Assembly: GCA_964346955.1 (NCBI GenBank)
Contig: CAYFWT010000013.1
Location: 1-29,022 of the forward strand
Reading direction: 5' to 3'
Length of the DNA stretch: 29,022 nt
DNA from: an uncultured Candidatus Saccharibacteria bacterium
Lineage (GTDB): Bacteria > Patescibacteriota > Minisyncoccia > Portnoybacterales > UBA2143
Part shown: positions 796 to 28,102 of the stretch, piece after piece
How the letters are laid out: each line of letters opens with the position of its first letter
Position numbering within the stretch: the stretch's first letter is position 1
Notes under the pieces: generated by a model
The model's input: the letters and a program-made list of their open reading frames with translations, nothing else
Told to the model about the DNA's origin: nothing
Databases searched by the model: none
Program-made: the position numbers and the translations under genes

Positions 796-1338
796 ATGGA
801 GCAGGGGACTGGTGGCTTTCTCGAGCCAGAAAGCATTTTAGAACAAATAGATATCCGTGACACTATGGAGGTAGCTGATTTTGGTTGTGGTCGCGGATAT
901 TTTGCTATCCCCTTGGCTAAAATAGTTAATCAAGGCATAGTTTATGCCTTTGATGTACTGGGAGAAGCTTTAGAAGCAGTAAGGAGTCAAGCTAAATTAG
1001 AGAAGGTTTCTAACATTAAGACTATTCGTTGTAATCTCGAAATTTTAGAGAGTTCGAAATTAGGAGATGATTCAATGGATTTGGTTATCTTAGCTAATAT
1101 TTTATTTCAATCGCAAAAAAAACCCGAAATTTTAAAGGAAGCTAAGAGGGTTTTAAAAGAGGAGGGAGAATTGATTTTAATCGATTGGATTGCTGGCACT
1201 ACTTTGGCTCCCAAAGATGGCTGGTTGATTTCCAAAAAAGAAGCTCAACAATTAGTTGAAGCTGAGGGATTAGCCCTGGATAGAGAATTGGCCGTAGATA
1301 ATCAGCATTATGGATTAGTTTTTAGAAAACTTGACTAA
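796..1338 (+). CDS. Class I SAM-dependent methyltransferase
   Basis: Motif I is VADFGCGRGYF (GxGxG). An acidic residue ends beta2 (YAFDV) and the motif II-like segment is LKEEGELILIDW. The start is an ATG. Confidence 0.65.
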   Translation: MEQGTGGFLEPESILEQIDIRDTMEVADFGCGRGYFAIPLAKIVNQGIVYAFDVLGEALEAVRSQAKLEKVSNIKTIRCNLEILESSKLGDDSMDLVILANILFQSQKKPEILKEAKRVLKEEGELILIDWIAGTTLAPKDGWLISKKEAQQLVEAEGLALDRELAVDNQHYGLVFRKLD

Positions 1339-2785: not shown

Positions 2786-3196
2786 ATGAAAAACTATCAG
2801 AAAATTTTAACCAGTTGTTTAATAATATTTAGTTGTATTTGGGCAGCCAATGCTTGGGCAGCTATAGTTCCTTGCGGCACTGAAGAGAATCCAGAGCCTT
2901 GTGCTCTTTGTCATCTCTGGCAGCTGGGCAGCAATATCATCAACTTTATTGTTTGGCAATTGTCCATTCCTGTGGCCGCTCTTTTATTTATTTCCGCCGG
3001 TGTTATTTTTATGACTTCTGGCGGCAGTGAAGAAAGAGTCGGCTTAGGGAAAAAGATTTTTCTTAATACAGCTATTGGTTTGATTATTGTTTTCTGCTCT
3101 TGGCTTTTAATTGATACTATATTTAAGACTCTGGCCAGCGGAGAATTTAGCGCTGCTTGGAACAAATTTCCTTCTTGTTTAGCACCACCGACTTAA
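2786..3196 (+). CDS. Small secreted two-helix membrane protein, VirB2/TrbC-like (T4SS-pilin-like) topology, paralog 1
   Basis: Signal peptide (MKNYQKILTSCLIIFSCIWAANAWA), then helix1 (IPVAALLFISAGVIFMTSGGSEE), a short polar loop and helix2 (KKIFLNTAIGLIIVFCSWLL). The architecture and the GG[S/D] loop are shared with the two downstream paralogs. Confidence 0.45.
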   Translation: MKNYQKILTSCLIIFSCIWAANAWAAIVPCGTEENPEPCALCHLWQLGSNIINFIVWQLSIPVAALLFISAGVIFMTSGGSEERVGLGKKIFLNTAIGLIIVFCSWLLIDTIFKTLASGEFSAAWNKFPSCLAPPT

Positions 3197-3207
3197 AAAT
3201 TATATCT

Positions 3208-3573
3208 ATGCTTAGAAATAATTTTAAAAATTTACCCTTTTTATTTTTTATTTTAACATTTTTTATAATTGGTCTGCCGCTGATTGGGATTAAAGCTCAA
3301 GCCCCTCCGCCTACGGAAATAGAGAATCCGCTGGGGACAGAAGATTTTGAGGAATTAGTCAGTCGTATTGCCACTTGGGTTTTTAATATTGGCATTGCCT
3401 TAGCTACGGTGGTCTTTCTTTGGAGCGGTTTTCAGTTTTTGATTTCAGGTGGCAGTGATCCAAAGGTAGCCAAGGCTAAAAAAACAATGTTTTGGGCAGT
3501 GGTTGGTTTAATTATTTGTTTATGTGGGGCAGGTATAACCACCTTGATTAAAGAATTTTTAGGAGCTAGTTAA
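3208..3573 (+). CDS. Small secreted two-helix membrane protein, VirB2/TrbC-like, paralog 2
   Basis: The track ORF 3157-3573 overlaps the previous gene, so the internal ATG at 3208 (MLRNNFKNLPFLFFILTFFIIGLPLIGIKAQA, a signal peptide) is preferred. It continues as ...WVFNIGIALATVVFLWSGFQFLISGGSDPKVAKAKKTMFWAVVGLIICL. Confidence 0.45.
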   Translation: MLRNNFKNLPFLFFILTFFIIGLPLIGIKAQAPPPTEIENPLGTEDFEELVSRIATWVFNIGIALATVVFLWSGFQFLISGGSDPKVAKAKKTMFWAVVGLIICLCGAGITTLIKEFLGAS

Positions 3574-3612
3574 ATAACTTAAAATTAAAAGAAAGGGGGT
3601 GAATTAAATTAA

Positions 3613-3948
3613 ATGAAAAGAAAAATTATTGCCGGTCTATCCTTGATGTCTTTATGGGGGTTTGCTTTACCGGTTTTTGCTCAGGTAGAGCCGCCGCCTG
3701 AACCAGTAACTTCTATAGAAGACATAATCAACTTAATAGATACAGCGGCAACTTGGCTTTTCACTATCATTTTAGCTGTTGCCGTAGTTATGTTACTGTA
3801 TGCTGCTTTCAGATGGATGACAGCCGGGGGAGATGAAACAGCCATAGCCTCATCCAGAAAACTGTTAATTTATGCTTTAGTTGGTATCGGTATTGCCTTT
3901 TTGGCTAAGGGTTTAGTTTCAGTAATCAGGCAGTTAGTGGGAGCTTAG
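3613..3948 (+). CDS. Small secreted two-helix membrane protein, VirB2/TrbC-like, paralog 3
   Basis: A strong SD (AAAGGGGGTGA) precedes the ATG. Signal peptide MKRKIIAGLSLMSLWGFALPVFAQ. Then WLFTIILAVAVVMLLYAAFRWMTAGGDE, a loop, and RKLLIYALVGIGIAFLAKGL. Confidence 0.5.
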   Translation: MKRKIIAGLSLMSLWGFALPVFAQVEPPPEPVTSIEDIINLIDTAATWLFTIILAVAVVMLLYAAFRWMTAGGDETAIASSRKLLIYALVGIGIAFLAKGLVSVIRQLVGA

Positions 3949-4015
3949 CTAGAGTCTAAAAGAAGATATTTTCAAGGATTGATTTCTAATCCGGCATTTT
4001 TTAGTTTAAAAAAAG

Positions 4016-4050
4016 AAAGCCAGGAAAGCATCTCTGCTTGCCTGGCTTTT
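4016..4050. terminator. Bidirectional rho-independent terminator between convergent genes
   Basis: Stem AAAGCCAGGAAAGCA / TGCTTGCCTGGCTTT with loop TCTC, flanked by A-run 4008-4017 on the left and TTTT on the right. It lies 68 nt after the 3948 stop and 11 nt after the 4061 stop of the minus-strand gene. Confidence 0.6.
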
Positions 4051-4060
4051 GGTGTCTTTA

Positions 4061-5113
4061 TTACCTCCTTCGTTTCCTCCAGGTCTTAATTTGGACCTGG
4101 ACCATCAGCTCTTTCCCTGCGTCATTTTTCAGTTCAATCACCCCGTCACCTACGGCTGACCCAGTTACACAAACTCGCTTCTTGATGAGAAAAGAAGGGA
4201 TCTTTTCCTTATTGATGAACCAGTATTTTCCTGGTGGGGAAGTGAGCTGAGTTAGTCTTATTACCTCGCCTTTCTGGTACCGTAATTGTCGGCCCTTGGC
4301 ATCCTTGCCGACTATCTCCTCTCCGATGGGCAGTTTGAAAATACCAATTAGCTGCCGAACTTTCTTAGGTCGAACTTCCTTAGCTTGGGCTTCAGGCCTA
4401 GACCACAATTTTTTCCAGTTTATCCGCTTTTCCGGTAGCACCGCATATATCTTTTGAATGGTTGCTTTCAACTTGTCTGTTCTTTTCAGCTCGGCCTTCG
4501 AAAGGATTCTCTTCTTGCTCTCCTTGGCGAGCATATTTAGTTCCCTGAGGAAAGGTCTGGCCTGATGGTCTTTGGCGAGCCTCTCGATATTTGCTATAGC
4601 CAGTTCAACTTTCGAGTTCATTAATCTAGAGAGCGCTGCCCTATCCAGGTTAGCGGCAAATTCTCCCCAGAAGAGTCCAAGGCAGATCATTGTTCCGGCA
4701 ATGGCAAATAAATAGACAAACTGCATTTCCAAGAGTATTCGAGAAAGCCGCTTCTCAAAAGGCTTCTTTTTATTGGTGATGCCACATAAGACGAAGACGG
4801 AAAGCTCCAAGGCTAAGAGAGGTTTCCAGTAGACTTTCCAAATTTCTCCCGAGGTCTCCCAAAACAGAAGGGCAAACCCTATATGGAGAAATCCCCAGGC
4901 CACCGGATTGGCAAAGGCAGGCTTGAAATAGTTCCACCAAAAAGGACCTGGACCTAAGTAAATCATTCCTCCTATTAAGATGATAGTCAGCAGGATAAGG
5001 CCTACTAAGATAAGAAGGCCCTTGAAAAGCCCTACTCCTACCATTGAGGAGAAAATGGCTATTACCACAAAGAGTATTCCTAAGACAGTCAATCCGATTC
5101 TATATCTACTCAT
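4061..5113 (-). CDS. Polytopic membrane protein with a charged coiled region and a small C-terminal domain; partner of the SPFH gene (possibly NfeD-like)
   Basis: 350 aa with about 5 N-terminal TM helices, a K/R/E-rich middle part and a C-terminal segment (VCVTGSAVGDGVIELKNDAGKELMVQVQI). Its start overlaps the upstream SPFH gene by 4 bp (ATGA), which implies an operon. Confidence 0.5.
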   Translation of the reverse strand: MSRYRIGLTVLGILFVVIAIFSSMVGVGLFKGLLILVGLILLTIILIGGMIYLGPGPFWWNYFKPAFANPVAWGFLHIGFALLFWETSGEIWKVYWKPLLALELSVFVLCGITNKKKPFEKRLSRILLEMQFVYLFAIAGTMICLGLFWGEFAANLDRAALSRLMNSKVELAIANIERLAKDHQARPFLRELNMLAKESKKRILSKAELKRTDKLKATIQKIYAVLPEKRINWKKLWSRPEAQAKEVRPKKVRQLIGIFKLPIGEEIVGKDAKGRQLRYQKGEVIRLTQLTSPPGKYWFINKEKIPSFLIKKRVCVTGSAVGDGVIELKNDAGKELMVQVQIKTWRKRRR

Positions 5114-6108
5114 TTTTCCTCACTCCTTTCTTTGGCTTCTTGATTCTTTGTCTCTTGATAAGTTCGGACTGCGTTGACTACGATATCAACTAGATTGGTC
5201 ACCACATCCCGAGCCATATCCATCATGACGATTTTGGTTGGGTCGGATTTTGTCGCCTCAATAATCCTGCTCAACTCTACACCTTTATGACGAGCTACCT
5301 CTTTCCTTCTTTTGGTCACTGTTTCGTATTCGGCGGCTGTCCTGACTTCTTCAGGCGGTAAAATCTTTTGGATTTCTATGGCCTCAGCTTTAATGCCCAG
5401 GAAATTCTCGACTTCCTCGTTGAACCTATCTCTCACTTCTCCTCCCATCTTTCGGAGTTGACCCTCAGAAAATTTGGTAAGTTTTTGCTGGGTTTCCTCC
5501 GAACACCTCTGGTTAATGAAAACGGTGGCTGCCTGGTCTTCAAATTCTATTCTGTTGCCATTGACTTTAACCGCAAATAGAGCCGGGTCAGAGACAATCG
5601 TTACGATTCGCCAGTCAATAATAGCTGTTTGATTGTCAGCTGTATTGACGGTAATCGCTTTAGGGTCTCTTGGTTGAGGTGATAAATCGACACAATCAAC
5701 GTCAATGTGAAGAAGATAGGGAAGATACCAATTCCATCCCTCTCTTCTTATTTTGTAGCCAAACCGCCTCCCTTTTTTATCAACCTTATCTATGTTAGAC
5801 CCCCAAGCACTTCTCAAGACCCAAGCATAATTGGCCGGTATATTTCTGACAATCCCGCCGAGAAGCCAATCTTTTCTTTTCTCTTCCTTGACTTCTTCTT
5901 TCTCTCCGGCTTCTTCTCTTTTTTTTGCGGCCATGGCTGCCCCGCCGAATAAAAGAATCAGCAAGAGCAAGGCGACAAATCCAAGGAACAGTTTTGTCCC
6001 AGTGGAGAATTGGATTCGTTGGATAAGAAGATAGCTTCCAAGAACCATGGCCAACATGCCTAAAGTAAACCATCCTTCTCTTTGTAAAAATTCTCTCATT
6101 GCAATCAC
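5110..6108 (-). CDS. SPFH / band-7 (stomatin-prohibitin-flotillin-HflK/C) domain membrane protein
   Basis: Two N-terminal TM segments. The SPFH core has PQPRDPKAITVNTADNQTAIIDWRIVTIVSDPALFAV and IKAEAIEIQKILPPEEVRTAAE, which match the stomatin VxTKDNVxVxVDAVVYYRVxDP and VxRVEIQRIDPPxxVQxAME blocks. SD AAAGGAG lies 8 nt upstream of the ATG. Confidence 0.8.
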   Translation of the reverse strand: MIAMREFLQREGWFTLGMLAMVLGSYLLIQRIQFSTGTKLFLGFVALLLLILLFGGAAMAAKKREEAGEKEEVKEEKRKDWLLGGIVRNIPANYAWVLRSAWGSNIDKVDKKGRRFGYKIRREGWNWYLPYLLHIDVDCVDLSPQPRDPKAITVNTADNQTAIIDWRIVTIVSDPALFAVKVNGNRIEFEDQAATVFINQRCSEETQQKLTKFSEGQLRKMGGEVRDRFNEEVENFLGIKAEAIEIQKILPPEEVRTAAEYETVTKRRKEVARHKGVELSRIIEATKSDPTKIVMMDMARDVVTNLVDIVVNAVRTYQETKNQEAKERSEEK

Positions 6109-6260: not shown

Positions 6261-6344
6261 GCGGACGTAGCCGAATTGGTATAGGCGCATGGCTTAGGAC
6301 CATGTGGGAGTTATCCCGTGTGGGTTCGAGTCCCACCGTCCGCA
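6261..6344 (+). tRNA. tRNA-Leu (anticodon TAG), type II with a long variable arm; no encoded CCA
   Basis: Acceptor stem GCGGACG / CGTCCGC with discriminator A. D arm CCGAATTGGTATAGG. Anticodon stem CATGG / CCATG with loop CTTAGGA. Variable arm TGGGAGTTATCCCGTG. T arm GTGGG TTCGAGT CCCAC. Confidence 0.9.
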
Positions 6345-6348
6345 CCGT

Positions 6349-13127: not shown

Positions 13128-13188
13128 GTTAGCGGTTCTTTAGCAAGAGTACGGATTGAAAATAAAGACAGTTTGGAGGTGGATAAAA

Positions 13189-13917
13189 ATGAAAGATAGA
13201 TTATTAAGATGTGTTAAGTGCAATGAAGTGATTAGCTTGACTCCGTGTGATTTTTCGCCAGGGGAACAACAACGACTCCAGGCAGGAATCTTCTCTATAA
13301 CCGAAGAGGAAAGAGGAAAATTTGAAGAGCGCCATCAAGGCCACCAGTTGGAAAGATTGGAGGTTAGAAGAAATTCTTATGCCAGCGAAGATCCTTGGTC
13401 TGACCCAACCAGGGAAGGATTTTTTGAAGCTACTGATAGCCAAGGGGGAAACTTTGTTGTCAAGCAATGGCGAGAGAAGACTGATGAGCCAATGAGTTAT
13501 GAGTTGGTTGGCCGGGGATGCATTAGAATCGAGAACAAAGAAATAGAAGTTCAGGAAGCTGCTATTAAGGAACAACTCAGATTGGAAGCTCAGGATAGGC
13601 AGCTAGTCATTGATGAGCAAGTCGAAGGCTTTCTCGTCGAACTTCTTAAAGCTCACGCAGGCTTTCTACTCCACAAAAAAAATCCTGAAGGGCAGATGGT
13701 CTTTAATGACAATCCTTTGATGGTTTGGTTCAGATTGAATGAATCATTCTTTTCTCCGATTCTATCCCTTTTGAAGACCATTCTCGGCAAAAGGGAGTAT
13801 CGATTTATCGAGGATTTCGTTGAGCAACATAATGAGTTCAACGATGTCCTAAGTTTGAAAATCAAACGTCGCTTCGAGGTTGTTGCCTTCGAATTCACCA
13901 ATCGCTTAGAAGGCTAA
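13189..13917 (+). CDS. Hypothetical protein with an N-terminal Cys cluster (possible zinc ribbon); monocistronic, GC-richer than the flanks
   Basis: A strong SD sits 6 nt before the ATG at 13189 (the track start 13156 is an in-frame TTG). N-terminus LLRCVKCNEVISLTPCDF. No recognisable family was identified. It has its own promoter and terminator. Confidence 0.55.
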   Translation: MKDRLLRCVKCNEVISLTPCDFSPGEQQRLQAGIFSITEEERGKFEERHQGHQLERLEVRRNSYASEDPWSDPTREGFFEATDSQGGNFVVKQWREKTDEPMSYELVGRGCIRIENKEIEVQEAAIKEQLRLEAQDRQLVIDEQVEGFLVELLKAHAGFLLHKKNPEGQMVFNDNPLMVWFRLNESFFSPILSLLKTILGKREYRFIEDFVEQHNEFNDVLSLKIKRRFEVVAFEFTNRLEG

Positions 13918-14000: not shown

Positions 14001-14072
14001 GGCCCCGTCGTCTAGTGGTTAGGACCTCAGCTTTTCAAGCTGGTAACAGGGGTTCGACTCCCCTCGGGGCTA
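14001..14072 (+). tRNA. tRNA-Glu (anticodon TTC); no encoded CCA
   Basis: GGCCCCG TC GTCT AGTGGTTAG GAC ... anticodon loop TTTTCAA ... TAACA GGGG TTCGACT CCCCT CGGGGCT A. It closely resembles E. coli tRNA-Glu (GTCTAGAGGCCCAGGAC ... TTTCACGGCGGTAACAGGGGTTCGAATCCCCT). Confidence 0.9.
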
Positions 14073-14074
14073 CT

Positions 14075-14105: not shown

Positions 14106-15677
14106 ATGCTCCCTAAGGAAAAGTATTATTTAAAGATAGGCAAGACAACTGATTTGAAAAGCCCGAAAGAAAGAATACTCTATCGGGCTTTTGAGCTTTT
14201 ACCAGGGACTTTAGCTTGGCTAACGCTTATCAGCGTTATTTTTTTATCTTGGCTTAAGCCAGTTTTGATAGCCCTTTTTATTATTGCCTTTGATGTCCAT
14301 TGGTTACTTAAAACTATTTATCTTTCTCTTCATTTAAGAGCCAGTTATTCTCAAATGAAAAAAAATTTGGCCATTGATTGGTTAGGGAAATTGAAATCTC
14401 TTCCTGGGAAAAATTGGCAGAATATCCATCACTTGGTTATCTTGCCAAGATATAAGGAGCCTTTGGAGGTGGTCCGAGCAACTTTCCAAGCGATTGCTAA
14501 TTCAGCCTATCCTAAAGATAAAATGATGGTTGTTTTAGCTATGGAAGAACGAACTATCGAGACAGGTAAAAAAGTAGCCCAAGCCATTGAAAAAGAATTT
14601 GGCAGTAAGTTCTATAAATTTCTGATTACCGTCCACCCCCAAGATATTATTGGGGAACTAGCTGGTAAGGGATCTAACTCTACTTGGGCAGCCAGACAAG
14701 TCAAAAAGGAGATCATTGACCCCTTAGGAATTCCTTACCAAGATATTATTGTTTCTTGTTTTGATATTGATACCCGGGTCTATCCTCAATATTTTTCTTG
14801 TTTAACTTATTATTATTTGACAGCCAAGAAACCAACTCAGTCTAGTTATCAACCAATTCCTATTTATAACAACAACATCTGGCGGGCGCCTTGTATTTCC
14901 CGGGTAGTGGCTACCTCAGGAACCTTTTGGCAAATGATGCAACAACAGCGGCCAGAACGACTTTCAACTTTTTCTTCTCAGTCGATTAGTTTTCAAACTT
15001 TAGTTGAAGTGGATTTTTGGCCAACCAATATGGTTTCCGAAGATTCCCGTATTTTCTGGCAAAATTTACTTTTTTATAATGGTAATTACCGAACTGTTCC
15101 TTTGTATTATCCGGTCTCCATGGATGCAAATCTAGCGCCCACTTTCTTTAAAACAGCTATCAATATTTACAAGCAACAGCGACGCTGGGGTTGGGGAGTA
15201 GAGAATATCCCCTTTTTGTTTTTCGGATTTTATAAAGATACTCAAGGTAAGATTCCTTGGCGAAAAAAACTCCGTTGGATTTTGATTCAATTAGAAGGTT
15301 TTTGGTCCTGGGCAACTAATGCTTTGCTTATATTTCTTTTAGGTTGGCTGCCTTTGTTTTTGGGTGGTCATAAATTTAACATCACTCTTTTATCTTATAA
15401 TTTGCCTCGAGTGACCCGAACTTTAATGACTTTAGCTATGGTTGGTTTAATTGGTTCGGCAATTTATAGCACTTTACTTTTACCTCGGCGGCCTAAAGAA
15501 TATGGCTTGATTAAGAACTTGTTTAAGGATTTAAGTATGGTTGTTCAATGGGTTTTACTGCCTTTCACCATTCTTATTTTTGGCTGCCTGCCTGGCTTAG
15601 ACAGCCAGACCAGATTAATGTTGGGTAAATATATGGGTTTTTGGGTCACTCCCAAGAAGGCAAGAAGCTACGGCTGA
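14106..15677 (+). CDS. Processive family-2 glycosyltransferase (cellulose/chitin/hyaluronan-synthase-like), integral membrane
   Basis: GT-A core with DxD-type CFDIDT and a QxxRW motif (QQRRWGWG). N-terminal and C-terminal TM helices are present. Confidence 0.7.
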   Translation: MLPKEKYYLKIGKTTDLKSPKERILYRAFELLPGTLAWLTLISVIFLSWLKPVLIALFIIAFDVHWLLKTIYLSLHLRASYSQMKKNLAIDWLGKLKSLPGKNWQNIHHLVILPRYKEPLEVVRATFQAIANSAYPKDKMMVVLAMEERTIETGKKVAQAIEKEFGSKFYKFLITVHPQDIIGELAGKGSNSTWAARQVKKEIIDPLGIPYQDIIVSCFDIDTRVYPQYFSCLTYYYLTAKKPTQSSYQPIPIYNNNIWRAPCISRVVATSGTFWQMMQQQRPERLSTFSSQSISFQTLVEVDFWPTNMVSEDSRIFWQNLLFYNGNYRTVPLYYPVSMDANLAPTFFKTAINIYKQQRRWGWGVENIPFLFFGFYKDTQGKIPWRKKLRWILIQLEGFWSWATNALLIFLLGWLPLFLGGHKFNITLLSYNLPRVTRTLMTLAMVGLIGSAIYSTLLLPRRPKEYGLIKNLFKDLSMVVQWVLLPFTILIFGCLPGLDSQTRLMLGKYMGFWVTPKKARSYG

Positions 15678-16279: not shown

Positions 16280-18376
16280 TTATTCCAGATGGATATTTTT
16301 TTGAAATTCTTTTAATTTACTTTCCAGCGTCGAATTAAACAAATTATTTTCTAAGATTTTTTTGGCCGCCTCTCTGGTTTTTCTAACCAAATTCAAATCA
16401 CTTAAAGAAGCCATGGTTAAATCAGGTAGTCCCCACTGACGAGTTCCCGTGAAGTCGCCTGGTCCTCGAATTTTTAAATCTTTTTCCGCTAATTCAAAGC
16501 CATCTTTAGCTTTTAAGACAGCTTTTAATCTTTGATGGGTTTTTTTAGCCATTGAGTCAGTAAAGAGAAGACAATAAGATTGTTCAGTGCCTCGGCCAAT
16601 CCGGCCACGGAATTGATGCAATTGAGCCAAGCCAAATCGGTCAGCTCCTTCAATCATCATTACCGTGGCATTGGGAATATCGATGCCTACTTCAACTACT
16701 GAAGTAGAGACTAAAATATTTGTTTGGTTATTTTTAAACTTTTTCATAATCTCTTCTTTTTCTTTGGCTTTGAGCTTACCATGAAGCATAGCAATTTTAA
16801 ATTTAGGGAAGACTTTAGAAGACAGTTTTTCATACTCTTGAGTGACTGATTTTACCTCTAATTTTTCTGATTCGTCAATTAAGGGGCAGATGACAAAGAC
16901 CTGCCTCTTTTGTTTTATCTGGTCTTTGATGAAGTTATAAGCTTTCTTGCGGTTAGCTGGCGCCACAATCTCAGTAATAATTTTTTGTCTGCCTTTGGGC
17001 ATTTCTTTTAAAAGAGAAATATCTAAGTCACCATAGATGGTTAAAGCCAGAGTGCGAGGAATTGGTGTGGCCGTCATGGAAAGTAAATGAGGAAGAGTGG
17101 GTAAGCCATCTTCTATTTGATAAATTTTTCTTTGAAGAGCTGCTCGTTGAGCCACCCCAAAACGATGTTGCTCATCAACAATAGCCAAAGCTAATTTTTT
17201 GAAAGTTAGTCCTTCTTGGATTAAGGCGTGAGTGCCAATAAGGATATCTATTTTCCCTCGGCTGATTTTCTTTTTAAGTAGGTGACGAGTAATCGTTGTA
17301 TTGGTATTAGTAATATTATCAGAGCTAGTCAATAAACTAATCTTCAATTTAGATTTTGTAAGCAAATCTTTAAAAGTCTGAAAATGCTGTTTGGCCAAAA
17401 TTTCCGTGGGAGCCATTAAAGCCACTTGATAGCCAGCTTTGGTCGTCTCTAAGGCAGCCATCATCGCTACCACTGTTTTGCCTGAGCCAACATCGCCATT
17501 AAGCAGTCGATTCATCGGCCTTCCTTTAGTTAAATCCTGAAAAATTTCCCAAGCAGCTAGGCGTTGGTCATCGGTTAATTTAAAAGGCAAGCTTTTAACA
17601 AAAGATTTAATTAGTTTTTGATTAAAGGGAATAGGCGGAGCTTTTTCTTGATTTATTTTTTGTCTTTGTCGAAGAACATTTAACTGAATTAGAAAAAGTT
17701 CATCAAAAGCTAAACGCTCCCGGGCTGCTTGGGCTAAAGAAGCATTAGCTGGGAAATGAATCTGTTTAATTGCTTCAGTCAGATTCATCAATTTAAATTC
17801 CCCTTTGATTGGCATAGGCAAGAAGTCAGTTATTTTATCGGCCAAAGGTAAAAGAGGTTTAATTAAATAACGAAGATAGCGGGAACTTAAACCAGCTGTT
17901 TCATGATAGACCGGGACAAGGCGACCAGTGTGGGTAGTTTCTTTTTGTGGCTTAACTACTTCATAAGCAGGGTTGGAAAGACAAAGCGTCTTTCCAGCAA
18001 AAGCAACTTTACCAGCCAGGTTAGCAATCTTTCCTTGGCGGAGGGTGCGGACTAAATAAGGTTGGTTAAACCAGACCGCCCTGATAGTGCCTGTTTTGTC
18101 TTCGATGATTGCTTCAACTATAGTCATTTTTCGCCAGGGAGTTCGAGTTAAACCAATCTCAGAAATCTTCCCACAAATAGTCACCAGCTGGCCTAGTTGT
18201 AATTGACTAATCGGGGTAAGTTGGCTGAAGTCATCATAGCGATGAGGAAAATGAAAAAATAGGTCCCGAATAGTTTTTATTTTCAGCTTATGAAGCTTTC
18301 TTAAATAAAGGGGACCTACTTTTTTTAGTTGTTCAATTTTAGTCTCTAAGGTTAGGGTCATTAAATTTATTCTCAA
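16280..18376 (-). CDS. recG: ATP-dependent DNA helicase RecG
   Basis: Wedge-domain N-terminus (HFPHRYDDF), Walker A GDVGSGKTVVA, DEQHRFGV (DEQH box) and helicase C motifs. The ATG at 18361 (MTLTLETKIEQ) is an alternative to the TTG at 18376. Confidence 0.9.
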   Translation of the reverse strand: MRINLMTLTLETKIEQLKKVGPLYLRKLHKLKIKTIRDLFFHFPHRYDDFSQLTPISQLQLGQLVTICGKISEIGLTRTPWRKMTIVEAIIEDKTGTIRAVWFNQPYLVRTLRQGKIANLAGKVAFAGKTLCLSNPAYEVVKPQKETTHTGRLVPVYHETAGLSSRYLRYLIKPLLPLADKITDFLPMPIKGEFKLMNLTEAIKQIHFPANASLAQAARERLAFDELFLIQLNVLRQRQKINQEKAPPIPFNQKLIKSFVKSLPFKLTDDQRLAAWEIFQDLTKGRPMNRLLNGDVGSGKTVVAMMAALETTKAGYQVALMAPTEILAKQHFQTFKDLLTKSKLKISLLTSSDNITNTNTTITRHLLKKKISRGKIDILIGTHALIQEGLTFKKLALAIVDEQHRFGVAQRAALQRKIYQIEDGLPTLPHLLSMTATPIPRTLALTIYGDLDISLLKEMPKGRQKIITEIVAPANRKKAYNFIKDQIKQKRQVFVICPLIDESEKLEVKSVTQEYEKLSSKVFPKFKIAMLHGKLKAKEKEEIMKKFKNNQTNILVSTSVVEVGIDIPNATVMMIEGADRFGLAQLHQFRGRIGRGTEQSYCLLFTDSMAKKTHQRLKAVLKAKDGFELAEKDLKIRGPGDFTGTRQWGLPDLTMASLSDLNLVRKTREAAKKILENNLFNSTLESKLKEFQKNIHLE

Positions 18377-18381
18377 GATAG

Positions 18382-18454
18382 TGCGCCCAGTAGGAGTCGA
18401 ACCTACGACCTCTTCCTCCGCAGGGAAACGCTCTATCCACTGAGCTATGGGCGC
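18382..18454 (-). tRNA. tRNA-Arg, anticodon read as GCG (unusual); no encoded CCA
   Basis: Reverse complement: GCGCCCA TA GCTC AGTGGATA GAGC G TTTCC CTGCGGA GGAAG AGGTC GTAGG TTCGACT CCTAC TGGGCGC A. The stems are perfect, A20 and C35 are Arg identity elements, and it resembles E. coli tRNA-Arg(ACG). Confidence 0.85.
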
Positions 18455-18462
18455 TTAACATA

Positions 18463-19005
18463 TCAAAATCTTAAACTCCGAGCTAAACTATCAATTAGAG
18501 ACTCTTCTTGTTTTTTTTCGGGCAAATATTTAATTAGGATTCGTCTCACTTCAGTTGGGTTCTCTTCCCCTAAGGGAATTTTGATATAGGGCATAATTAT
18601 TTTTTTGCTCTGTAAGCTGACTTCTTTTACCTCTGGTGGATTATAGAAAATCCAGAATGATTTTAAATTGTCAAAATTATAAATAGTTTTATCAATTTTG
18701 ATGCCCTGGGAAGTAATGACTAGCTGGATGACTTTCGGTTTTTTTAGGGCATAAGTAGTTATCGAAAAATAACTTAAGCCAATCAAGAGAGCAAAAATAA
18801 TATTTTTAGTTAAGAGAGCCCAAAGGAATAATCCAGTAGCGATTAAGCCAGTGATGAGGAACCAGGATTTGCTCTTGCTATATTGAGTAAATTCTGGAGC
18901 AGACCATTCGAGATGACTTTTTGCTTTCTTTGGCTGGCTTTTTTCTCGGGCGGCTTGTTTCTCTTCTGACTTGTTTTTTTCTTTAAGGTTGATGATATTG
19001 ACCAT
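18463..19005 (-). CDS. Hypothetical membrane protein (K/E-rich N-terminus, 2 TM helices, roughly 90 aa C-terminal domain)
   Basis: 180 aa ORF wedged between tRNA genes, with its ATG at 19003-19005. Two hydrophobic helices (WFLITGLIATGLFLWALL, IIFALLIGLSYFSITTYAL). Confidence 0.5.
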   Translation of the reverse strand: MVNIINLKEKNKSEEKQAAREKSQPKKAKSHLEWSAPEFTQYSKSKSWFLITGLIATGLFLWALLTKNIIFALLIGLSYFSITTYALKKPKVIQLVITSQGIKIDKTIYNFDNLKSFWIFYNPPEVKEVSLQSKKIIMPYIKIPLGEENPTEVRRILIKYLPEKKQEESLIDSLARSLRF

Positions 19006-19006
19006 G

Positions 19007-19093
19007 CGGCGAGAGAGGGATTCGAACCCCCGGTACCCTTTCGGATACAGCGGTTTTCAAGACCGCCCCGTTCGTCCACTCCGGCATCTCGCC
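19007..19093 (-). tRNA. tRNA-Ser (anticodon TGA), type II; no encoded CCA
   Basis: Reverse complement: GGCGAGA TG CCGG AGTGGACGAA CGGG G CGGTC TTGAAAA CCGCT GTATCCGAAAGGGTAC CGGGGG TTCGAAT CCCTC TCTCGCC G. Confidence 0.85.
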
Positions 19094-19170: not shown

Positions 19171-19181
19171 GTTTTAAGCTG

Positions 19182-19269
19182 CGGAGGAGGTGGGACTCGA
19201 ACCCACAAACCGCTTTTTACACGGTTACAGTTTAGCAAACTGCTGCCTTACCATTCGGCGCACTCCTCC
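19182..19269 (-). tRNA. tRNA-Ser (anticodon GCT), type II; no encoded CCA
   Basis: Reverse complement: GGAGGAG TG CGC CGAATGGTAA GGC A GCAGT TTGCTAA ACTGT AACCGTGTAAAAAGCGGTT TGTGG GTTCGAGT CCCAC CTCCTCC G. Confidence 0.85.
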
Positions 19270-19309: not shown

Positions 19310-19972
19310 TTACCCTTTCGCCACCACCAGTCCCCAAATCTCTTTTGGCTTGAGTGATTTGAGCGTCTTGGCGCACTCTTTTAAAGTAGCTCCAGTGGTG
19401 GAAATATCATCAACTAAAATGATGGTTTTGTTGAATAGGGATAGTCCTTGCCAAGCAGGGACTGTCCCTATCTCGAAGGCTTTTTTGATATTGGCCTTTC
19501 TTTCTGGAGGGCTTTTAATTTGCACCTGGGGCAAACCATATCTTGTTCGGACTAAGAAATTATTAATTAAAGGAATCCTTAATTCTTGACTGACCACTTT
19601 AGCTAAGAGTTCGGCTTGATTAAACCCCCGCCAACGTAATCGTTTTTTATGCAGAGGCACCGGAATCAAAAAAGTGTCCTTTTTAACTGTCTTTGGCCAA
19701 GTGATCAATTTTTTAATCATCAATTTCCCCAGCGGTTTAGCTAACTCTTTAATAAAATCATATTTGTATCGATGGATAGCTTGTTTAACTAATGGATAGT
19801 CGTAATCACTAGCGGTGATTAGACCAGTAAGAGGAGATTTTTGCCTGAATTTAGTTAGCTGTTCTCTATTTAAGGGGACTTGTTTGAGGCAGGAAAAACA
19901 GATAAATTCTCCCTCTCGATGACAACCAAGGCAATGGATAGGGAAAAATAAGTCAAGGATAAATTTTCGCAT
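19310..19972 (-). CDS. comFC: ComF family protein (ComFC-like phosphoribosyltransferase with N-terminal zinc finger)
   Basis: CLGCHREGEFICFSC zinc-binding motif and PRTase motif IILVDDISTTGATL. Contains an in-frame palindrome pair (19428-19464) encoding GTVPAWQGLSL. Confidence 0.8.
   Translation of the reverse strand: MRKFILDLFFPIHCLGCHREGEFICFSCLKQVPLNREQLTKFRQKSPLTGLITASDYDYPLVKQAIHRYKYDFIKELAKPLGKLMIKKLITWPKTVKKDTFLIPVPLHKKRLRWRGFNQAELLAKVVSQELRIPLINNFLVRTRYGLPQVQIKSPPERKANIKKAFEIGTVPAWQGLSLFNKTIILVDDISTTGATLKECAKTLKSLKPKEIWGLVVAKG
19428..19464. repeat. Pair of AGGGAC-N-GTCCCT-type palindromes inside comFC
   Basis: AGGGATAGTCCTT (19428-19440), then GCCAAGC, then AGGGACTGTCCCT (19452-19464). 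The encoded peptide TVPAWQGLSL parallels TVPQGLSL, which the same repeat encodes in tsaD. Confidence 0.6.
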
Positions 19973-20107: not shown

Positions 20108-21190
20108 ATGTTTTTATTTGGTAAGAAGCCGAAGAGTCATTTAGGTATTGATATTGGCGCTTCGGCAGTTAAATTAGTTGAATTGGAAAAAGAAGGAGGA
20201 AGGCACAAGTTGATAAATTATGGAGTTTTCTTCTTGAAAGAATATCTAAAGCAGAAGGAGAAACAGGGAAAACAGGAGATAGGAGAGCAGGATAAAAAAG
20301 AGACTTTGCGGATTCCCGATGAGGAGATGGCCGAGATAATAAAAAAGACTATTGGAGAGGCTAAAATTAGAACTCGGGAAGCTTATCTTTCCGTTCCTGT
20401 TTATTCTAGCTTTTTGACTCTGATTGAGCTCCCGGCCATGCCCGAAAAAGAGATTGCTGCCGCTCTTCCTTTTGAGGCTAAAAAATACGTCCCTGTACCT
20501 ATTTCAGAAGTAGTTTTGGATTGGAGTGTTGTTGGGTTGCCAGATAAGCAAGCTACTCTTCAGATTTTACTTATTGCTGTCCCTAAGGAAGTTATTAGTT
20601 ATTATAACAAAATAATTAAATTAGTTGGTTTAAATCTCCGCAGTCTAGAAGAAGAAACATTTAGTTTAACCCGATCTCTAGTGGGAAATGATAAGAGTGC
20701 TCTTCTTTTGATTGACGCCGGAGCCCGCTCTATTAATATCAGCATCATTGACGAAGGCTATATTCGAGTTGCTCATAATTTGGAAATGGGCGGGACTAAA
20801 ATAATTAAAGCCGTTTCTCAGCAGATGGGTCTTAGTCCAGAAAAAGAAGAGGAATTAAAAAAGACTCTTTCTTCTGGTCAAATGATTGATAAGCAAGGTC
20901 CTGAACTAAAAGGAATAATCCATTCTATTTTAGGTAATATCACTATCGAAGTTAGAAAGATTATTGATTCGTATCAAGGTAAATATAATCGAAAAATTGA
21001 AAAATGTATTTTAATCGGTGGAGCTGTTCAAGCATTTGGCTTTGTTGAATATTTTATTAATAAGTTAAATATGGAGGTTTCTTTGGGCAATCCTTTTGCT
21101 CGAGTAATCTATCCTTCTCTACTTGAGCCGGCTCTAAAAGAATTAGGTTCTTCTTTAGCAGTAGCGGTTGGTTTGGCAATGAGAGAGTAA
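20108..21190 (+). CDS. pilM: Type IV pilus assembly protein PilM (actin-like ATPase fold)
   Basis: The N-terminus HLGIDIGASAVKLVEL is typical of PilM/FtsA-like proteins. An in-frame purine-rich low-complexity insertion follows (KQKEKQGKQEIGEQDKKETL). Confidence 0.8.
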   Translation: MFLFGKKPKSHLGIDIGASAVKLVELEKEGGRHKLINYGVFFLKEYLKQKEKQGKQEIGEQDKKETLRIPDEEMAEIIKKTIGEAKIRTREAYLSVPVYSSFLTLIELPAMPEKEIAAALPFEAKKYVPVPISEVVLDWSVVGLPDKQATLQILLIAVPKEVISYYNKIIKLVGLNLRSLEEETFSLTRSLVGNDKSALLLIDAGARSINISIIDEGYIRVAHNLEMGGTKIIKAVSQQMGLSPEKEEELKKTLSSGQMIDKQGPELKGIIHSILGNITIEVRKIIDSYQGKYNRKIEKCILIGGAVQAFGFVEYFINKLNMEVSLGNPFARVIYPSLLEPALKELGSSLAVAVGLAMRE

Positions 21191-21198
21191 ATAGATAG

Positions 21199-21313
21199 AT
21201 TACAAATCCCAAATCACAAATCACAATCCTTCGACTCGGTCGTCTAAAGCGACCTCACTCAGGAAATAATTTTATAGTGAGCTTGTCGAACTATTGTTTG
21301 TAATTTGGAATTT
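21199..21313. repeat. Low-complexity inverted repeat (ATTACAAATCCCAAATCACAAATCACAA ... TTGTTTGTAATTTGGAATT) flanking a 67 bp core
   Basis: The arms lie at 21199-21226 and 21294-21313. The core contains the hairpin GGTCG-TCTAAA-GCGACC (21238-21255) and the 25 bp repeat copy 2 (21271-21295). Confidence 0.6.
21271..21295 (-). repeat. 25 bp exact repeat, inverted copy 2 (TTTATAGTGAGCTTGTCGAACTATT)
   Basis: Perfect reverse complement of 14075-14099. It lies 30 bp upstream of the pilN GTG start. Confidence 0.85.
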
Positions 21314-21324
21314 TATTTATTGAC

Positions 21325-21912
21325 GTGGATATCAAATTGATGCCCGAAAAATATAAGAGGAAGGAGGAGCTGGTTCCTGAATCAAAATTGTCACCAGCTA
21401 GTCTTTCTAAAAGGGTAGTGGCCAAGGCTAATCTTTGGCTGGCTTTATCTCTTATTTTGTTAATCATAGCTGTCTTGGCTACCTTTGGGTTCTGGGGCTA
21501 TAAGGATAATTTGATTAAAGAGAAAGGAAATTTAGAAGAAAAGATAAAGGAATTAGATAACCAAAGAGACCTAGATTTAGAAGCTAATTTTATAGAATTA
21601 AAAAAGGGTATTGAAAGTTTTAAGAATATTTTAAAGACTCACATTTATCCTTCTTATCTTTTTAAGATGCTAGAAGAATTAACTCTTCCTCAAGTTCGGT
21701 TTATTGAGTTTGGGGCTGATTTGTCTCAAGCCAAGATAACTTTAACAACCGAGACAGTTAATTATAACATTCTTGCTAAACAAATAGTTGCTTTTGAACA
21801 AGATTCCCGCATCGAGAAAGTAGAGCTTTCGGAAGTTAGTTTAGGGGATACTGGTGGGGTTGGTTCCGAATTAGAAATAGAATTAAATCCTGATTTTTTA
21901 CGTCCAGAATAA
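21325..21912 (+). CDS. pilN: Type IV pilus assembly protein PilN
   Basis: The N-terminal IKLMPE matches the INLLP PilM-binding motif. A single TM helix (LWLALSLILLIIAVLATFGFWGY) is followed by a coiled-coil periplasmic domain. The start is a GTG at 21325 or the ATG at 21340. Confidence 0.6.
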   Translation: MDIKLMPEKYKRKEELVPESKLSPASLSKRVVAKANLWLALSLILLIIAVLATFGFWGYKDNLIKEKGNLEEKIKELDNQRDLDLEANFIELKKGIESFKNILKTHIYPSYLFKMLEELTLPQVRFIEFGADLSQAKITLTTETVNYNILAKQIVAFEQDSRIEKVELSEVSLGDTGGVGSELEIELNPDFLRPE

Positions 21913-21934
21913 AAATAAGAGATAAAAATAAAAT

Positions 21935-22543
21935 ATGAATAAAAAAATCATTGTCAGTGTAGTTAGTTTGCTGATTAGCCTAGCTTTAATATCTATTTTT
22001 GTTTTCCCTCTTTGGTCTTCGGTGAGAACTTTGCGGCAAGAAGTAACTCAAAAGAGGCTAGACTTAGCCAAGGTTGAGGATCTTTTAAATAAAACTCAGC
22101 AACTTAAACAAGAACTTCAGGGAGTAGAGGAAGAATCTCAAAGAATTTTTTTCGCTTTGCCAAAGGAAAAAGATATCCCTAATTTATTAATTCAATTTGA
22201 GGCCTTAGCTTTAGCCAATGGCTTGTTACTTGAGTCAATAAGGTTTGGCCAACTAGACGGAGCAAAAGGAACTGCTAGCCAAGGAACATCGGAGCAATTT
22301 TCTCAAGATTCGCTCCAACCCCAAAAAAAGTTGGCCCTTCGCAGTTTGCCCGTAGATTTAATCATTAGTGGTTCTTATAGCGCTTTTAAAAAATATTTAG
22401 CTGATTTAGAAAAGGATGTTCGTTCTATGGATATTCATTCCATTAGTCTTGCTACTCCCAAAGAAGACGAAGAGGCTAGTATTTTAGCGCCTTCGTTGGG
22501 CATTTTTGAATTTAATTTAGGATTAGTCGTTTACTACCAATAA
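21935..22543 (+). CDS. pilO: Type IV pilus assembly protein PilO-like
   Basis: N-terminal TM helix (IIVSVVSLLISLALISIFVF), then a coiled-coil and a C-terminal domain. Its position after pilN fits PilO. Confidence 0.5.
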   Translation: MNKKIIVSVVSLLISLALISIFVFPLWSSVRTLRQEVTQKRLDLAKVEDLLNKTQQLKQELQGVEEESQRIFFALPKEKDIPNLLIQFEALALANGLLLESIRFGQLDGAKGTASQGTSEQFSQDSLQPQKKLALRSLPVDLIISGSYSAFKKYLADLEKDVRSMDIHSISLATPKEDEEASILAPSLGIFEFNLGLVVYYQ

Positions 22544-22547
22544 TTAG

Positions 22548-22640
22548 GAAATCACAAACCACAAACCACAAATCACAAAACACAAACAGTTTGTAATTTG
22601 GAAATTGGAATTTGTTTGTAATTTGGTGCTTGTGATTTGG
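22548..22640. repeat. About 93 bp imperfect palindrome built from (CAAAYCACAAA)n / (TTTGTAATTTGG)n low-complexity units
   Basis: The left arm GAAATCACAAACCACAAACCACAAATCACAAAACACAAAC is nearly the reverse complement of the right arm GTTTGTAATTTGGAAATTGGAATTTGTTTGTAATTTGGTGCTTGTGATTTGG. Confidence 0.6.
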
Positions 22641-22720
22641 AATTTTATTTTACCGTGGCCTTTAGGCTCCGCTCTAAAGAATCCATACTTTTTCCTCAAG
22701 AAAGGAAACAGCAGAAGCTA

Positions 22721-22984
22721 ATGATAGCTTTGGCAGGGTTAATTTTAACAACTTTTGCTATTTTGTATTTTGGGTTTTTTCGCTCACCCGCGCCTCCGGG
22801 CCCGTCTGATGGCGAACCAGGCCCCTCTGAAAGGCCTACGGTTAGGCCGGAAGAAGTGATTAAAAAAATCGAGTTTGATATTAGTTTCTTAAAAGAGCCT
22901 GACTTCCGAGCTTTAAAAATTTACGGAGAATGGCCTATTGAGATAGAAGAGAAAGGCCGAAAGAACCCATTTTCACCATATTAA
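22721..22984 (+). CDS. Small membrane-anchored protein with a Pro-rich linker (possible PilP-like accessory protein)
   Basis: The ATG at 22721 is preferred because the track ORF upstream part overlaps the repeat. TM helix IALAGLILTTFAILYFGFF, linker SPAPPGPSDGEPGPSERPTVRPEE, and an approximately 45 aa C-terminal domain. Confidence 0.4.
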   Translation: MIALAGLILTTFAILYFGFFRSPAPPGPSDGEPGPSERPTVRPEEVIKKIEFDISFLKEPDFRALKIYGEWPIEIEEKGRKNPFSPY

Positions 22985-23059
22985 AATTAGTAAGCAACAA
23001 GCAATATTTAATTTATTAATTAATCTGTTTTTGTTTAATATTCTTTGTTTGTTGTCACG

Positions 23060-24688
23060 ATGGCTAATCAAAATGACAATCTGAAAGAAGTAGAGACAGT
23101 TAAAGCTAAAGCTAGGGCGTTGAAAGTTCCTTTTATGGATTTAACCGGCAGAGAAGTTCCGGTTGAAGTTTTGAAAGAAATTTCTGAAGAAGCAGCTGCT
23201 TTTTATAAATTTATTCCCTTATCCAGACATGAGAATATTCTTGAAGTGGGAATGGTTAATCCTGATAACCTTAAAGCAAAGGAGGCTTTAAGGTTTATTA
23301 CTCGCCGCAGTGGATTGGAAGCAAAGATATTTCTTGTTACCCCGACTGACTTTAAAAACATCTTGAAGCAATATCGAACTCTTCGAATCGAAGTGCAAAA
23401 GGCACTCAAAGAGCTGGAGAAAGAATTGAAGCCAAAGAAAGGAAAGGTGCCGGTTGCGGAGAGAGCCAAGGAGCTAGCCGAGAAAATTGTCGCTGAAGCA
23501 CCGATAACTAAAATAGTGGCAGTTATTTTAAGGCATGCTACCGAAGGTCGAGCTTCTGATATCCATATCGAAGCGATTGAAGAGAAAGTAAAAGTTCGTT
23601 TTAGAGTTGACGGAGTCCTTTATACCAGTCTTTTCTTGCCCAAAGAAGTTCATTCGGCGATTATTTCCCGGATTAAAATACTTTCTAATTTAAAGATTGA
23701 TGAGACGAGGATACCACAAGATGGCCGATTTAATACTTTTATTGCTGGAAAGAAGATTGATTTTCGGGTCTCTACTTTGCCAACGGCCGGCGGAGAAAAG
23801 GCAGCTTTAAGGGTGCTGGACCCAACGATTGGCTTAAGAAGTTTCGCTGAGCTAGGTCTCCAAGGATACAATCTCGAACTTTTAGAGACGTCTATTCAAC
23901 AGCCATTTGGCATGATTCTGATTACTGGGCCAACTGGTTCTGGTAAAACCACTACTCTTTATGCTATTTTGAATAAATTGAATCAAGAGGGGGTTAATAT
24001 TATCAGTCTAGAGGACCCGGTGGAGTATTACATTGAGGGGATTAACCAATCTCAAATTAGGCCAGAGATAGGTTATAACTTCGCTTCTGGCTTGCGGCAT
24101 ATTCTTAGGCAAGATCCTGATATTATTATGGTTGGTGAGATTAGAGATGAGGAAACAGCCGGCTTAGCTATTCACGCTGCCTTGACTGGTCACATTCTTC
24201 TTTCTACTTTGCATACTAATAATGCTATTGGAGTTATCCCTCGTTTAGTCGATATGGGCATCGGTGCATTCCTCTTGCCCACTTCCCTAAATCTAGCTAT
24301 TGCTCAACGTTTGACCAGACGACTCTGTGAGCATTGTAAAAAAGAAGTAACTGCTCCTTCTCAAGCGAGCGAAATAATTGAGGAAGAGTTAGCTGAATTA
24401 AGCCCGGCCCGAAAGAAAGAATTCCCTTGGCGAAAACCATTTAAAGTTTATCGAGCTACCGGATGTAAATTTTGTGGAGGAAAAGGAACTAAAGGTCGAA
24501 TTGCTCTTTTTGAGATGATCACGATGACCCCTCAATTAGAGCTAATTATTAACGAAGGCCCAACCGAGGCAAAGATAAAGGAGGAAGCTCAGCGCCAAGG
24601 GATGATTACTATGAAACAGGATGGCGCCTCAAAAGTTCTTCAGGGCCTTATCTCTTTCGAGGAAATGCTTAAGGTAGTTGAGGAGTAA
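23060..24688 (+). CDS. pilB: Type IV pilus assembly ATPase PilB (GspE family)
   Basis: Walker A GPTGSGKTT. Tetracysteine motif CEHCKK ... GCKFCGG. GspE N-terminal domain. ATG at 23060 (MANQNDN). Confidence 0.9.
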   Translation: MANQNDNLKEVETVKAKARALKVPFMDLTGREVPVEVLKEISEEAAAFYKFIPLSRHENILEVGMVNPDNLKAKEALRFITRRSGLEAKIFLVTPTDFKNILKQYRTLRIEVQKALKELEKELKPKKGKVPVAERAKELAEKIVAEAPITKIVAVILRHATEGRASDIHIEAIEEKVKVRFRVDGVLYTSLFLPKEVHSAIISRIKILSNLKIDETRIPQDGRFNTFIAGKKIDFRVSTLPTAGGEKAALRVLDPTIGLRSFAELGLQGYNLELLETSIQQPFGMILITGPTGSGKTTTLYAILNKLNQEGVNIISLEDPVEYYIEGINQSQIRPEIGYNFASGLRHILRQDPDIIMVGEIRDEETAGLAIHAALTGHILLSTLHTNNAIGVIPRLVDMGIGAFLLPTSLNLAIAQRLTRRLCEHCKKEVTAPSQASEIIEEELAELSPARKKEFPWRKPFKVYRATGCKFCGGKGTKGRIALFEMITMTPQLELIINEGPTEAKIKEEAQRQGMITMKQDGASKVLQGLISFEEMLKVVEE

Positions 24689-24706
24689 TGAAAAGCGAGC
24701 AACGGA

Positions 24707-25159: not shown

Positions 25160-25173
25160 TAATAAATAATAAG

Positions 25174-26636: not shown

Positions 26637-26653
26637 AGGGCTTGGCCTAAAAA

Positions 26654-26777: not shown

Positions 26778-26783
26778 ATTGGC

Positions 26784-27989: not shown

Positions 27990-28102
27990 TTATTAAGACT
28001 CCAGAATCAGGGATAGTCTCTTTTCCTAAAAAGGACTTTCTCTGGCAAAGGTCGAAAGTTAAAAAAATAAAATCTATCCACCAATGAAAGGAGGTGAAAA
28101 AG

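Follow-up and report, generated by a model that had tools for sequence, protein, structure and literature searches.

We analyzed a 29-kb stretch of DNA from an uncultured Candidatus Saccharibacteria bacterium (contig CAYFWT010000013.1 of assembly GCA_964346955.1, positions 1 to 29,022; hereafter the window) that carries three consecutive small genes encoding proteins similar to the VirB2 pilins of type IV secretion systems (T4SSs). The initial annotation, made from the letters alone, had placed three tandem genes of 111-136 amino acids (aa) at positions 2786-3948, and this was confirmed by the listing of open reading frames (ORFs), in which the three lie consecutively on the same + strand. We refer to them by gene order as p1, p2 and p3 (Table 1). 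In the NCBI annotation the pilins are hypothetical proteins (locus tag GTO36_05785). They were also correctly described as following a solute-binding protein (SBP), called a lipoprotein, and a methyltransferase: the former contains the PF01547 and PF13416 domains, and Pfam scans of the neighboring genes identified the latter. The SBP has thousands of relatives, and the closest named ones come from Candidatus Portnoybacteria, Parcubacteria and Patescibacteria. The host is a reduced Patescibacterium of the Parcubacteria group that is Portnoybacteria-like; the names of the SBP orthologs and the lineage agree with the earlier suggestion of a reduced host.

The SBP gene, p1, p2 and p3 look like a single four-gene operon because the gaps between them are small (4, 11 and 39 nucleotides (nt), respectively) and a hairpin stands after p3. 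This GC-rich hairpin is followed by a T run, the RNA fold of positions 3990-4065 has an energy of -24.4 kcal/mol (z = -2.9), and the element is probably a bidirectional terminator that ends the operon. A consensus scan from position 1480 to this hairpin detected no terminator-like site on the + strand. Just 3' of the methyltransferase stop there is a further terminator-like hairpin on the + strand (1385-1400), which suggests that the operon has its own promoter in the gap at 1400-1480; no sigma-70-like site was found in that gap. The longest ORF of p2 opens at an alternative TTG at position 3157, and the ortholog at one related locus (L002) is called as 121 aa. The start of p3 is preceded by a strong Shine-Dalgarno sequence, AAAGGGGGTGA.

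Cleavage sites and topology were inferred from the sequence (hydropathy and AxA sites) and from AlphaFold2 models. Together these bear out the shared architecture that had been proposed for the three proteins, namely a signal peptide, a helix, a GG[S/D] turn, a basic loop and a second helix. All three N-termini are positively charged and lead into hydrophobic signal-like segments, which end in AxA-type sites (AWA↓A, AQA↓P and VFA↓Q across the set). Two hydrophobic segments follow, separated by SGGSEERVGLGKK, SGGSDPKVAKAKK or AGGDETAIASSRK, so that the inter-helix turn is GG[S/D] and basic at its far end in p1-p3. The models of p1 and p3 consist of two helices of ~36 residues joined by a turn of 4-5 residues (p1, helices 41-76 and 82-117, pLDDT 86; p3, helices 35-70 and 75-110, pLDDT 77). 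The three proteins share only 23-27% pairwise identity. In p1, three cysteines follow the signal peptide (C30, C39 and C42) and a fourth lies in a C-terminal WNxFPxC tail (C131). The three-gene pattern is not due to chance because all three proteins score above the gathering score of one family and the same gene order is found in relatives.

That family is PF18895 (T4SS_pilin), with scores of 37.0 bits for p1, 56.2 for p2 and 40.7 for p3 against a gathering score of 26.6. The NCBIfam model NF045849, which describes a pilin-like protein of Mycoplasma integrative and conjugative elements (ICEs; Mbov_0395 family), gave 23-24 bits for p2 and p3 (E ~3e-5), below its cut-off of 40 bits. We compared the pilins with canonical VirB2 by aligning profiles in hhalign. 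The canonical alignment was made from eight annotated VirB2/TrbC genes of MPF-T plasmids, each located between a lytic transglycosylase gene and virB3. The alignment of p1-type proteins matched it with a probability of 94.6% (E = 6.6e-8, score 48.8) over 65 columns that cover both helices and the loop, and the p3-type alignment matched with a probability of 80.3% (E = 1.4e-5, score 35.7). As controls, we used the reversed VirB2 alignment and 30 block-shuffled versions of it, which peaked at scores of 24.8 (p1-type) and 18.8 (p3-type) with probabilities ≤ 15.9%. Because the real scores exceed those of the controls, the pilin-VirB2 signal is, at the level of sequence profiles, more than hydrophobic composition. 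The placement of p1-p3 in a VirB2/TrbC-like family therefore holds: they are PF18895 members and, as judged from these profiles, homologous to canonical VirB2/TrbC.

The p1 subfamily comprises 8244 cluster representatives at E ≤ 1e-3. No match to p3 was detected by tblastn in 72,556 plasmids, and a scan of the genome collection with one pilin alignment matched 124 stretches, none of which was confirmed by tblastn; two other pilin alignments lacked a stretch of sufficient conservation for such a scan. One distant homolog (P0008) belongs to a seven-gene pilin array ~5 kb from genes for PrgI (VirB3-like) and a TraC-like VirB4. We also observed fused arrays, in which one signal peptide precedes 4-8 tandem pilin-like hairpins in a single protein (P0018, 606 aa; P0127, 820 aa; P0086; P0132).

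Arrays of this kind have been published. Quinonero-Coronel et al. (2025) searched PF18895 and PF04956 in 3,035 Patescibacteria genomes, in which virB4 was detected 2,474 times (PMC12102498). Among assemblies with virB4, they found VirB2-like pilins in 1,948; in 1,135 of these (about 58%), a pilin lies near virB4. They also described 441 arrays, each of 2-11 pilin genes, whose identity averages 25% (PMC12102498). The initial annotation overstated how unusual the locus is, given that the published tandem divergent arrays include ones away from virB4 (PMC12102498). The array in the window is a further example of the Patescibacteria VirB2-like arrays, and nothing about it is new at the level of gene families.

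Conservation of the locus and its cysteine-bearing first pilin gene

The SBP belongs to the SBP_bac_1/SBP_bac_8 family, to which NCBIfam added only weak matches to carbohydrate-type SBPs. It has a signal peptide and a cysteine at the expected lipobox position and is probably a lipoprotein. Relatives with SBPs of 52-76% identity show the same order of gyrA, methyltransferase, SBP and pilins; their arrays have 2, 3 or 5 genes and the genes downstream differ.

We searched representative genomes, one for each species, with the SBP alignment and analyzed the 80 top-ranking loci, which span Portnoy-, Yanofsky-, Moran-, Doudna- and Liptonbacteria, among others, and have SBP identities of about 40-77%. 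To call pilin ORFs in these loci, we derived Hidden Markov Models (HMMs) from the pilin alignments. In 79 of the 80 species-representative loci, the SBP gene has a pilin-like ORF after it on the same strand. The first pilin ORF opens a median of ~7 nt after the SBP stop, and its start overlaps that stop by 4 nt in 13 loci. No pilin ORF was found upstream of the SBP gene or on the opposite strand in the 80 loci. Array size ranges from 1 to 8 genes, five being the commonest among the 45 loci with ≥ 6 kb of downstream sequence. The methyltransferase gene is directly upstream of the SBP gene in 57 out of 72 loci and gyrA is present in 50. The SBP-to-pilin adjacency is thus kept better than the adjacency of SBP and methyltransferase, and it persists where a nucleotidyl transferase takes the place of the methyltransferase upstream. 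The gene 3' of the array is highly variable between loci. The adjacency of SBP and pilins is the most conserved feature of the locus. One apparent SBP-pilin fusion of 617 aa (L063, 3455-5308) was rejected as an artefact: a masked stretch of N, translated as X, connects two reading frames.

The first gene of the array is distinct from the others. Homologs of p1 (n = 42) have four invariant or near-invariant cysteines, three after the signal peptide (LVPCG...PCxxC[H/D]) and one in the WNxFPxC tail. Of 78 first genes, 57 have the C..CxxC signature, compared with no more than 3 of 67 genes at any later position. The first array gene is therefore a position-specific, cysteine-bearing subtype, and the order of the operon is SBP first, cysteine-type pilin second. 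Canonical TrbC/VirB2 proteins undergo head-to-tail cyclization and polymerize with phospholipid into an extracellular pilus. In p1, disulfides between the cysteines probably link the two ends of the protein, as an analog of this cyclization; such a link is possible because the VirB2 topology puts both termini outside the cell.

Many first genes are long (>175 aa in 48 of 78 loci). We scanned seven of the long proteins against Pfam. All seven matched T4SS_pilin, three of them above the gathering score, and six had a C-terminal SLT lytic transglycosylase domain above the gathering score. He_PIG immunoglobulin (Ig)-like domains were detected in three (L029, L038 and L053), two of which also have fn3 repeats. 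An HMM for the SLT C-terminal domain detected this domain in 18 of the 80 loci. In 17 of the 18, it is part of the first pilin-HMM-positive gene (L026, L029, L032, L033, L035, L038, L044, L045, L048, L049, L052-L057 and L064), and in L030 it is encoded by an adjacent ORF ~400 nt after the SBP gene. The fusions of a p1-type domain with SLT reach 1,202 aa and are in effect VirB2-VirB1 fusions. The p1 of the window is the short form, without SLT, He_PIG or fn3 domains. The arrays of 15 loci are interrupted by a conserved + strand gene of ~220 aa that has no Pfam match (cluster 12, representative L045:12096-12788); it sits just after the long first gene (L026, L038, L045, L050 and 11 others).

The pilins diverge much faster than the neighboring genes. 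Compared with locus L043, identity is 72% for the SBP and 67% for the methyltransferase, and falls to 50% for p1, 40% for p2 and 32% for p3. Such fast divergence fits exposed, variable subunits. In the literature searched and the supplementary text of the array survey (PMC12102498), we found no mention of an SBP partner of Patescibacteria pilin arrays; that supplementary text has no Pfam term for SBP or SLT and does not list the accession of the source assembly. Nor did the literature searched hold a prior report of the lack of a nearby permease or VirB4, of the cysteine-bearing first gene, of the transglycosylase fusions in 18 of 80 loci or of the fast pilin divergence.

Interpretation of the operon

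The function of T4SSs and their pilins in Patescibacteria has been called completely unknown (PMC11665869). A predicted pilin series within the T4SS cluster of Southlakia epibionticum was found to be essential (Wang et al. 2023; PMC10633639), and a 2025 review considered the arrays as possible pili of a monoderm T4SS, with speculation about uptake from the host (PMC12857230). In the one Patescibacteria species tested, the T4SS and its pilins are essential.

The explanation that we favor, with moderate confidence, is that the operon encodes a carbohydrate-type SBP lipoprotein and three VirB2-family pilins that are extruded by a VirB4/VirB6 T4SS. Sec would insert each prepilin and signal peptidase I would cleave it; the product would then form a helical hairpin in the membrane, its two termini facing outward and its basic loop in the cytoplasm. 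A VirB4/VirB6-type T4SS encoded elsewhere would draw pilins from this membrane pool and form a pilus or conduit at the contact with the host cell, as proposed for the essential Southlakia epibionticum array. In this scheme p1 would be a specialized first subunit with an initiator, tip or wall-cutting role, which is suggested by the Ig-like/fn3 spacers and the lytic transglycosylase that the same position carries in relatives, while p2 and p3 would be fast-evolving shaft or variant subunits. The constant co-location of SBP and pilins suggests that the SBP may work at this surface structure as well, where it could, for instance, capture sugars derived from the host.

Several results weigh against this explanation. 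As the initial annotation had stated, VirB4, VirB6 and VirD4 are missing from the window; the comparison of its large ORFs with Pfam also gave no VirB3 or VirB11. Neighbor clustering detected no VirB4-sized ATPase within 10 kb of the 80 related arrays, where the neighbors are housekeeping families only. Since no VirB3, VirB4, VirB6 or VirD4 was found in the window or within 10 kb of the 80 related arrays, the evidence tying the pilins to a T4SS machine comes from other lineages and from published work. The similarity to the canonical family is incomplete: of the two Pfam models bearing on the proposed assignment, PF18895 supports it and the cut-off of PF04956 (TrbC) is missed, with p2 at 23.4 bits (E = 7e-5) and p3 at 26.2 bits (E = 9e-6) below the gathering score of 27.9 and no match of p1 to this model. 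A Foldseek search of the PDB with the p1 and p3 models returned no match at E ≤ 0.001, only non-specific helical ones. The T-pilus VirB2 (8exh_A) ranked 22nd with E = 4.1 and a TM of 0.56 on the target, helical hairpins being poor in fold information, and a sequence-profile search of the PDB matched no pilin. Proteins in which 7-8 hairpins are fused in a single polypeptide (P0018 and P0127) are hard to square with simple pilus polymerization. To our knowledge, a pilus built from these proteins has yet to be observed in any Patescibacterium. The lack of structure matches is expected for a two-helix hairpin. As virB4 is found widely across the phylum, and in Paceibacteria usually near dnaA/dnaN (PMC12102498), its absence within 10 kb is weak evidence that the genome lacks it.

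The strongest alternative, which we regard as possible although unlikely, is that the hairpins never leave the membrane, where they would form a ring, pore or anchoring platform that works with the SBP and without a VirB4-type machine, in an envelope function or in nutrient uptake, joined in relatives by the fused wall-cutting enzyme. In favor of it, the SBP-pilin adjacency holds in 79 of 80 loci with no VirB4 or ATP-binding cassette (ABC) permease within 10 kb and survives a change of both flanking genes. The use of the p1-type domain as an N-terminal anchor for extracellular domains, in proteins of up to 1202 aa, and the single proteins with 7-8 fused hairpins (P0018 and P0127) also agree with a membrane platform. 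It fits less well with the occurrence of the same family in arrays within T4SS clusters (P0008; PMC10633639) and near virB4 in 1135 assemblies, and with the sequence homology to true pilus subunits. The T4SS-independent filament or conduit suggested in the initial annotation is neither supported nor refuted by these results, and the wide distribution of virB4 in the phylum, including its position near dnaA/dnaN in Paceibacteria, sets a prior against it.

We consider it very unlikely that the adjacency is merely an inherited order in a housekeeping block (gyrA, methyltransferase, SBP, pilins) whose members are uncoupled, so that the SBP serves an ABC importer encoded elsewhere and the pilins serve a T4SS. 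The upstream part of the block is indeed conserved too (methyltransferase at 57 of 72 loci, gyrA at 50) and the SBP_bac_1 and SBP_bac_8 domains of the SBP are unremarkable. Neither the window nor the 10-kb surroundings of the 80 orthologous loci were found to contain an ABC permease or ATPase, and these may be encoded elsewhere. However, the step from SBP to pilin is the best-conserved adjacency and persists with other genes upstream and downstream, and the median gap of ~7 nt and the 4-nt start/stop overlap in 13 loci point to co-translation. Lastly, the idea that these are unrelated small membrane proteins (holins or other phage-derived proteins) or type IV pilus (T4P) pilins, which their small size, two hydrophobic helices, multiple copies and a T4P cluster 16 kb away might suggest, is effectively refuted: the holin alternative raised in the initial annotation falls because PHROGs gave no holin match (only one weak match of p3 to a family of unknown function) and the surroundings are housekeeping genes with no phage genes nearby, and T4P-pilin identity was rejected because the PF07963 N-methylation motif is absent from p1-p3 and present in the true T4P pilins at 24707 and 28094.

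A bolder proposal, and in our view a rather unlikely one, is that in Parcubacteria-group bacteria the SBP, the cysteine-stapled first pilin (in many cases carrying a fused lytic transglycosylase) and the variable pilins form one surface module that would cut the host wall and capture the released sugars or muropeptides, and would either pass these to the cell via a pilin conduit or work without VirB4. If true, this module would be the first concrete handle on the purpose of the essential Patescibacteria 'T4SS pilus', as uptake rather than secretion. The arrangement of SBP, cysteine-type pilin (with or without lytic transglycosylase) and variable pilins, found in 79 of 80 loci and never adjoining virB4, is a testable lead on function, and the conserved order allows the specialized first subunit to be told apart from shaft or variant subunits.

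Other genes of the window

Most large ORFs of the window are housekeeping or T4P genes according to Pfam, and the neighbors identified include the SBP, methyltransferase, gyrA, a Band_7 protein and VanW. ORFs without a Pfam match lie at 4061-5113, 13156-13917, 14106-15677 and 18463-19005. The first of these encodes a polytopic membrane protein of 350 aa whose C-terminal part is rich in beta structure, and overlaps by 4 nt the gene of a Band_7/SPFH protein (332 aa), of which it may be an NfeD-like partner. This pair is also found downstream of the array in L002 and L009 and not in L008. The ORF at 14106-15677 encodes a polytopic membrane protein of 523 aa, in which the motif QQRRWGWG recalls, by eye, the QxxRW of processive GT2 glycosyltransferases.

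A complete T4P cluster is located ~16 kb from the pilin operon. Cultivated Saccharibacteria require T4P for motility and for attaching to their hosts (PMC11665869). Between the operon and this cluster, we observed genes for RecG and for a ComF-like phosphoribosyltransferase with a double zinc ribbon; comF and recG often neighbor T4SS genes in the ABY1 class (PMC12102498), but none of the latter is present at this site. Five tRNA genes are placed among the housekeeping genes (Table 1).

Table 1. Features of the 29-kb window, with positions numbered from its first nucleotide
Feature	Position	Strand	Context or basis
gyrA, 3' end			Upstream of the SBP gene, with the methyltransferase gene; Pfam scan
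Methyltransferase	796-1338		Upstream of the SBP gene; Pfam scan
SBP, 433 aa	1480-2781	+	PF01547, 116 bits; PF13416, 103 bits
p1, VirB2-like pilin, first-position cysteine type, 136 aa	2786-3196	+	PF18895
p2, VirB2-like pilin, 121 aa from ATG 3208	3208-3573	+	PF18895
p3, VirB2-like pilin, 111 aa	3613-3948	+	PF18895
GC-rich hairpin, then T run	4015-4054		Between the convergent p3 and 350-aa genes
350-aa gene and Band_7/SPFH gene	4061-6108	-	4-nt overlap
tRNA-Leu (TAG)	6261-6346		Among housekeeping genes
tRNA-Glu (TTC)	14001-14073		Among housekeeping genes
RecG	16280-18376	-	Between pilin operon and T4P cluster
tRNA-Arg (GCG)	18381-18454		Among housekeeping genes
tRNA-Ser (TGA)	19006-19093		Among housekeeping genes
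tRNA-Ser (GCT)	19181-19269		Among housekeeping genes
ComF-like phosphoribosyltransferase	19310-19972	-	Between pilin operon and T4P cluster
T4P cluster	20108-28552	+	In order: PilM, unannotated gene in the PilN position, PilO, 115-aa ORF, PilB (T2SSE and MshEN), pilin, response regulator, PilT, PilC, second pilin

Comparison with known systems

We compared the operon with four kinds of known pilin loci. Canonical VirB2/TrbC (Agrobacterium VirB2, PF04956) resembles the pilins of the window in its long signal peptide with an A-Q type cleavage context and in its two hydrophobic helices, short loop and similar length, with a profile probability of 80-95%. In canonical operons virB1, which encodes a lytic transglycosylase, stands directly before virB2, and relatives of the window locus combine both functions in one protein. 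In contrast to the canonical proteins, the window pilins are below the PF04956 cut-off and have no adjacent virB1, virB3 or virB4. VirB2 pili are otherwise a feature of diderms, whereas the host of the window is a monoderm that has three divergent copies rather than one. Canonical VirB2/TrbC is cyclized, and p1 probably has disulfides instead.

A VirB2-like protein in a wall-less or monoderm setting is also known from the Mbov_0395 family of Mycoplasma ICEs (NF045849), which p2 and p3 match weakly. The scores in the window are, however, far below the 40-bit cut-off and there is no ICE context.

Tandem virB2 genes in Bartonella and Anaplasma are similarly divergent side-by-side pilin copies, for which variation of a surface structure is the proposed reason, but they belong to diderm animal pathogens with complete adjacent virB operons (comparison taken from PMC12102498).

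The closest comparison is with the arrays of Southlakia epibionticum ML1 and the 441 published arrays. They share with the window PF18895 membership, tandem genes of ~25% identity (23-27% here), a Sec signal followed by a helical hairpin, and a chromosomal location in a reduced, host-dependent bacterium with no relaxase nearby. The array of the window differs in being outside a T4SS cluster, at the distal end of an SBP-headed operon amid housekeeping genes. This SBP-headed arrangement occurs in 79 of 80 Parcubacteria-group representatives, and its first pilin gene is of the cysteine-bearing subtype.

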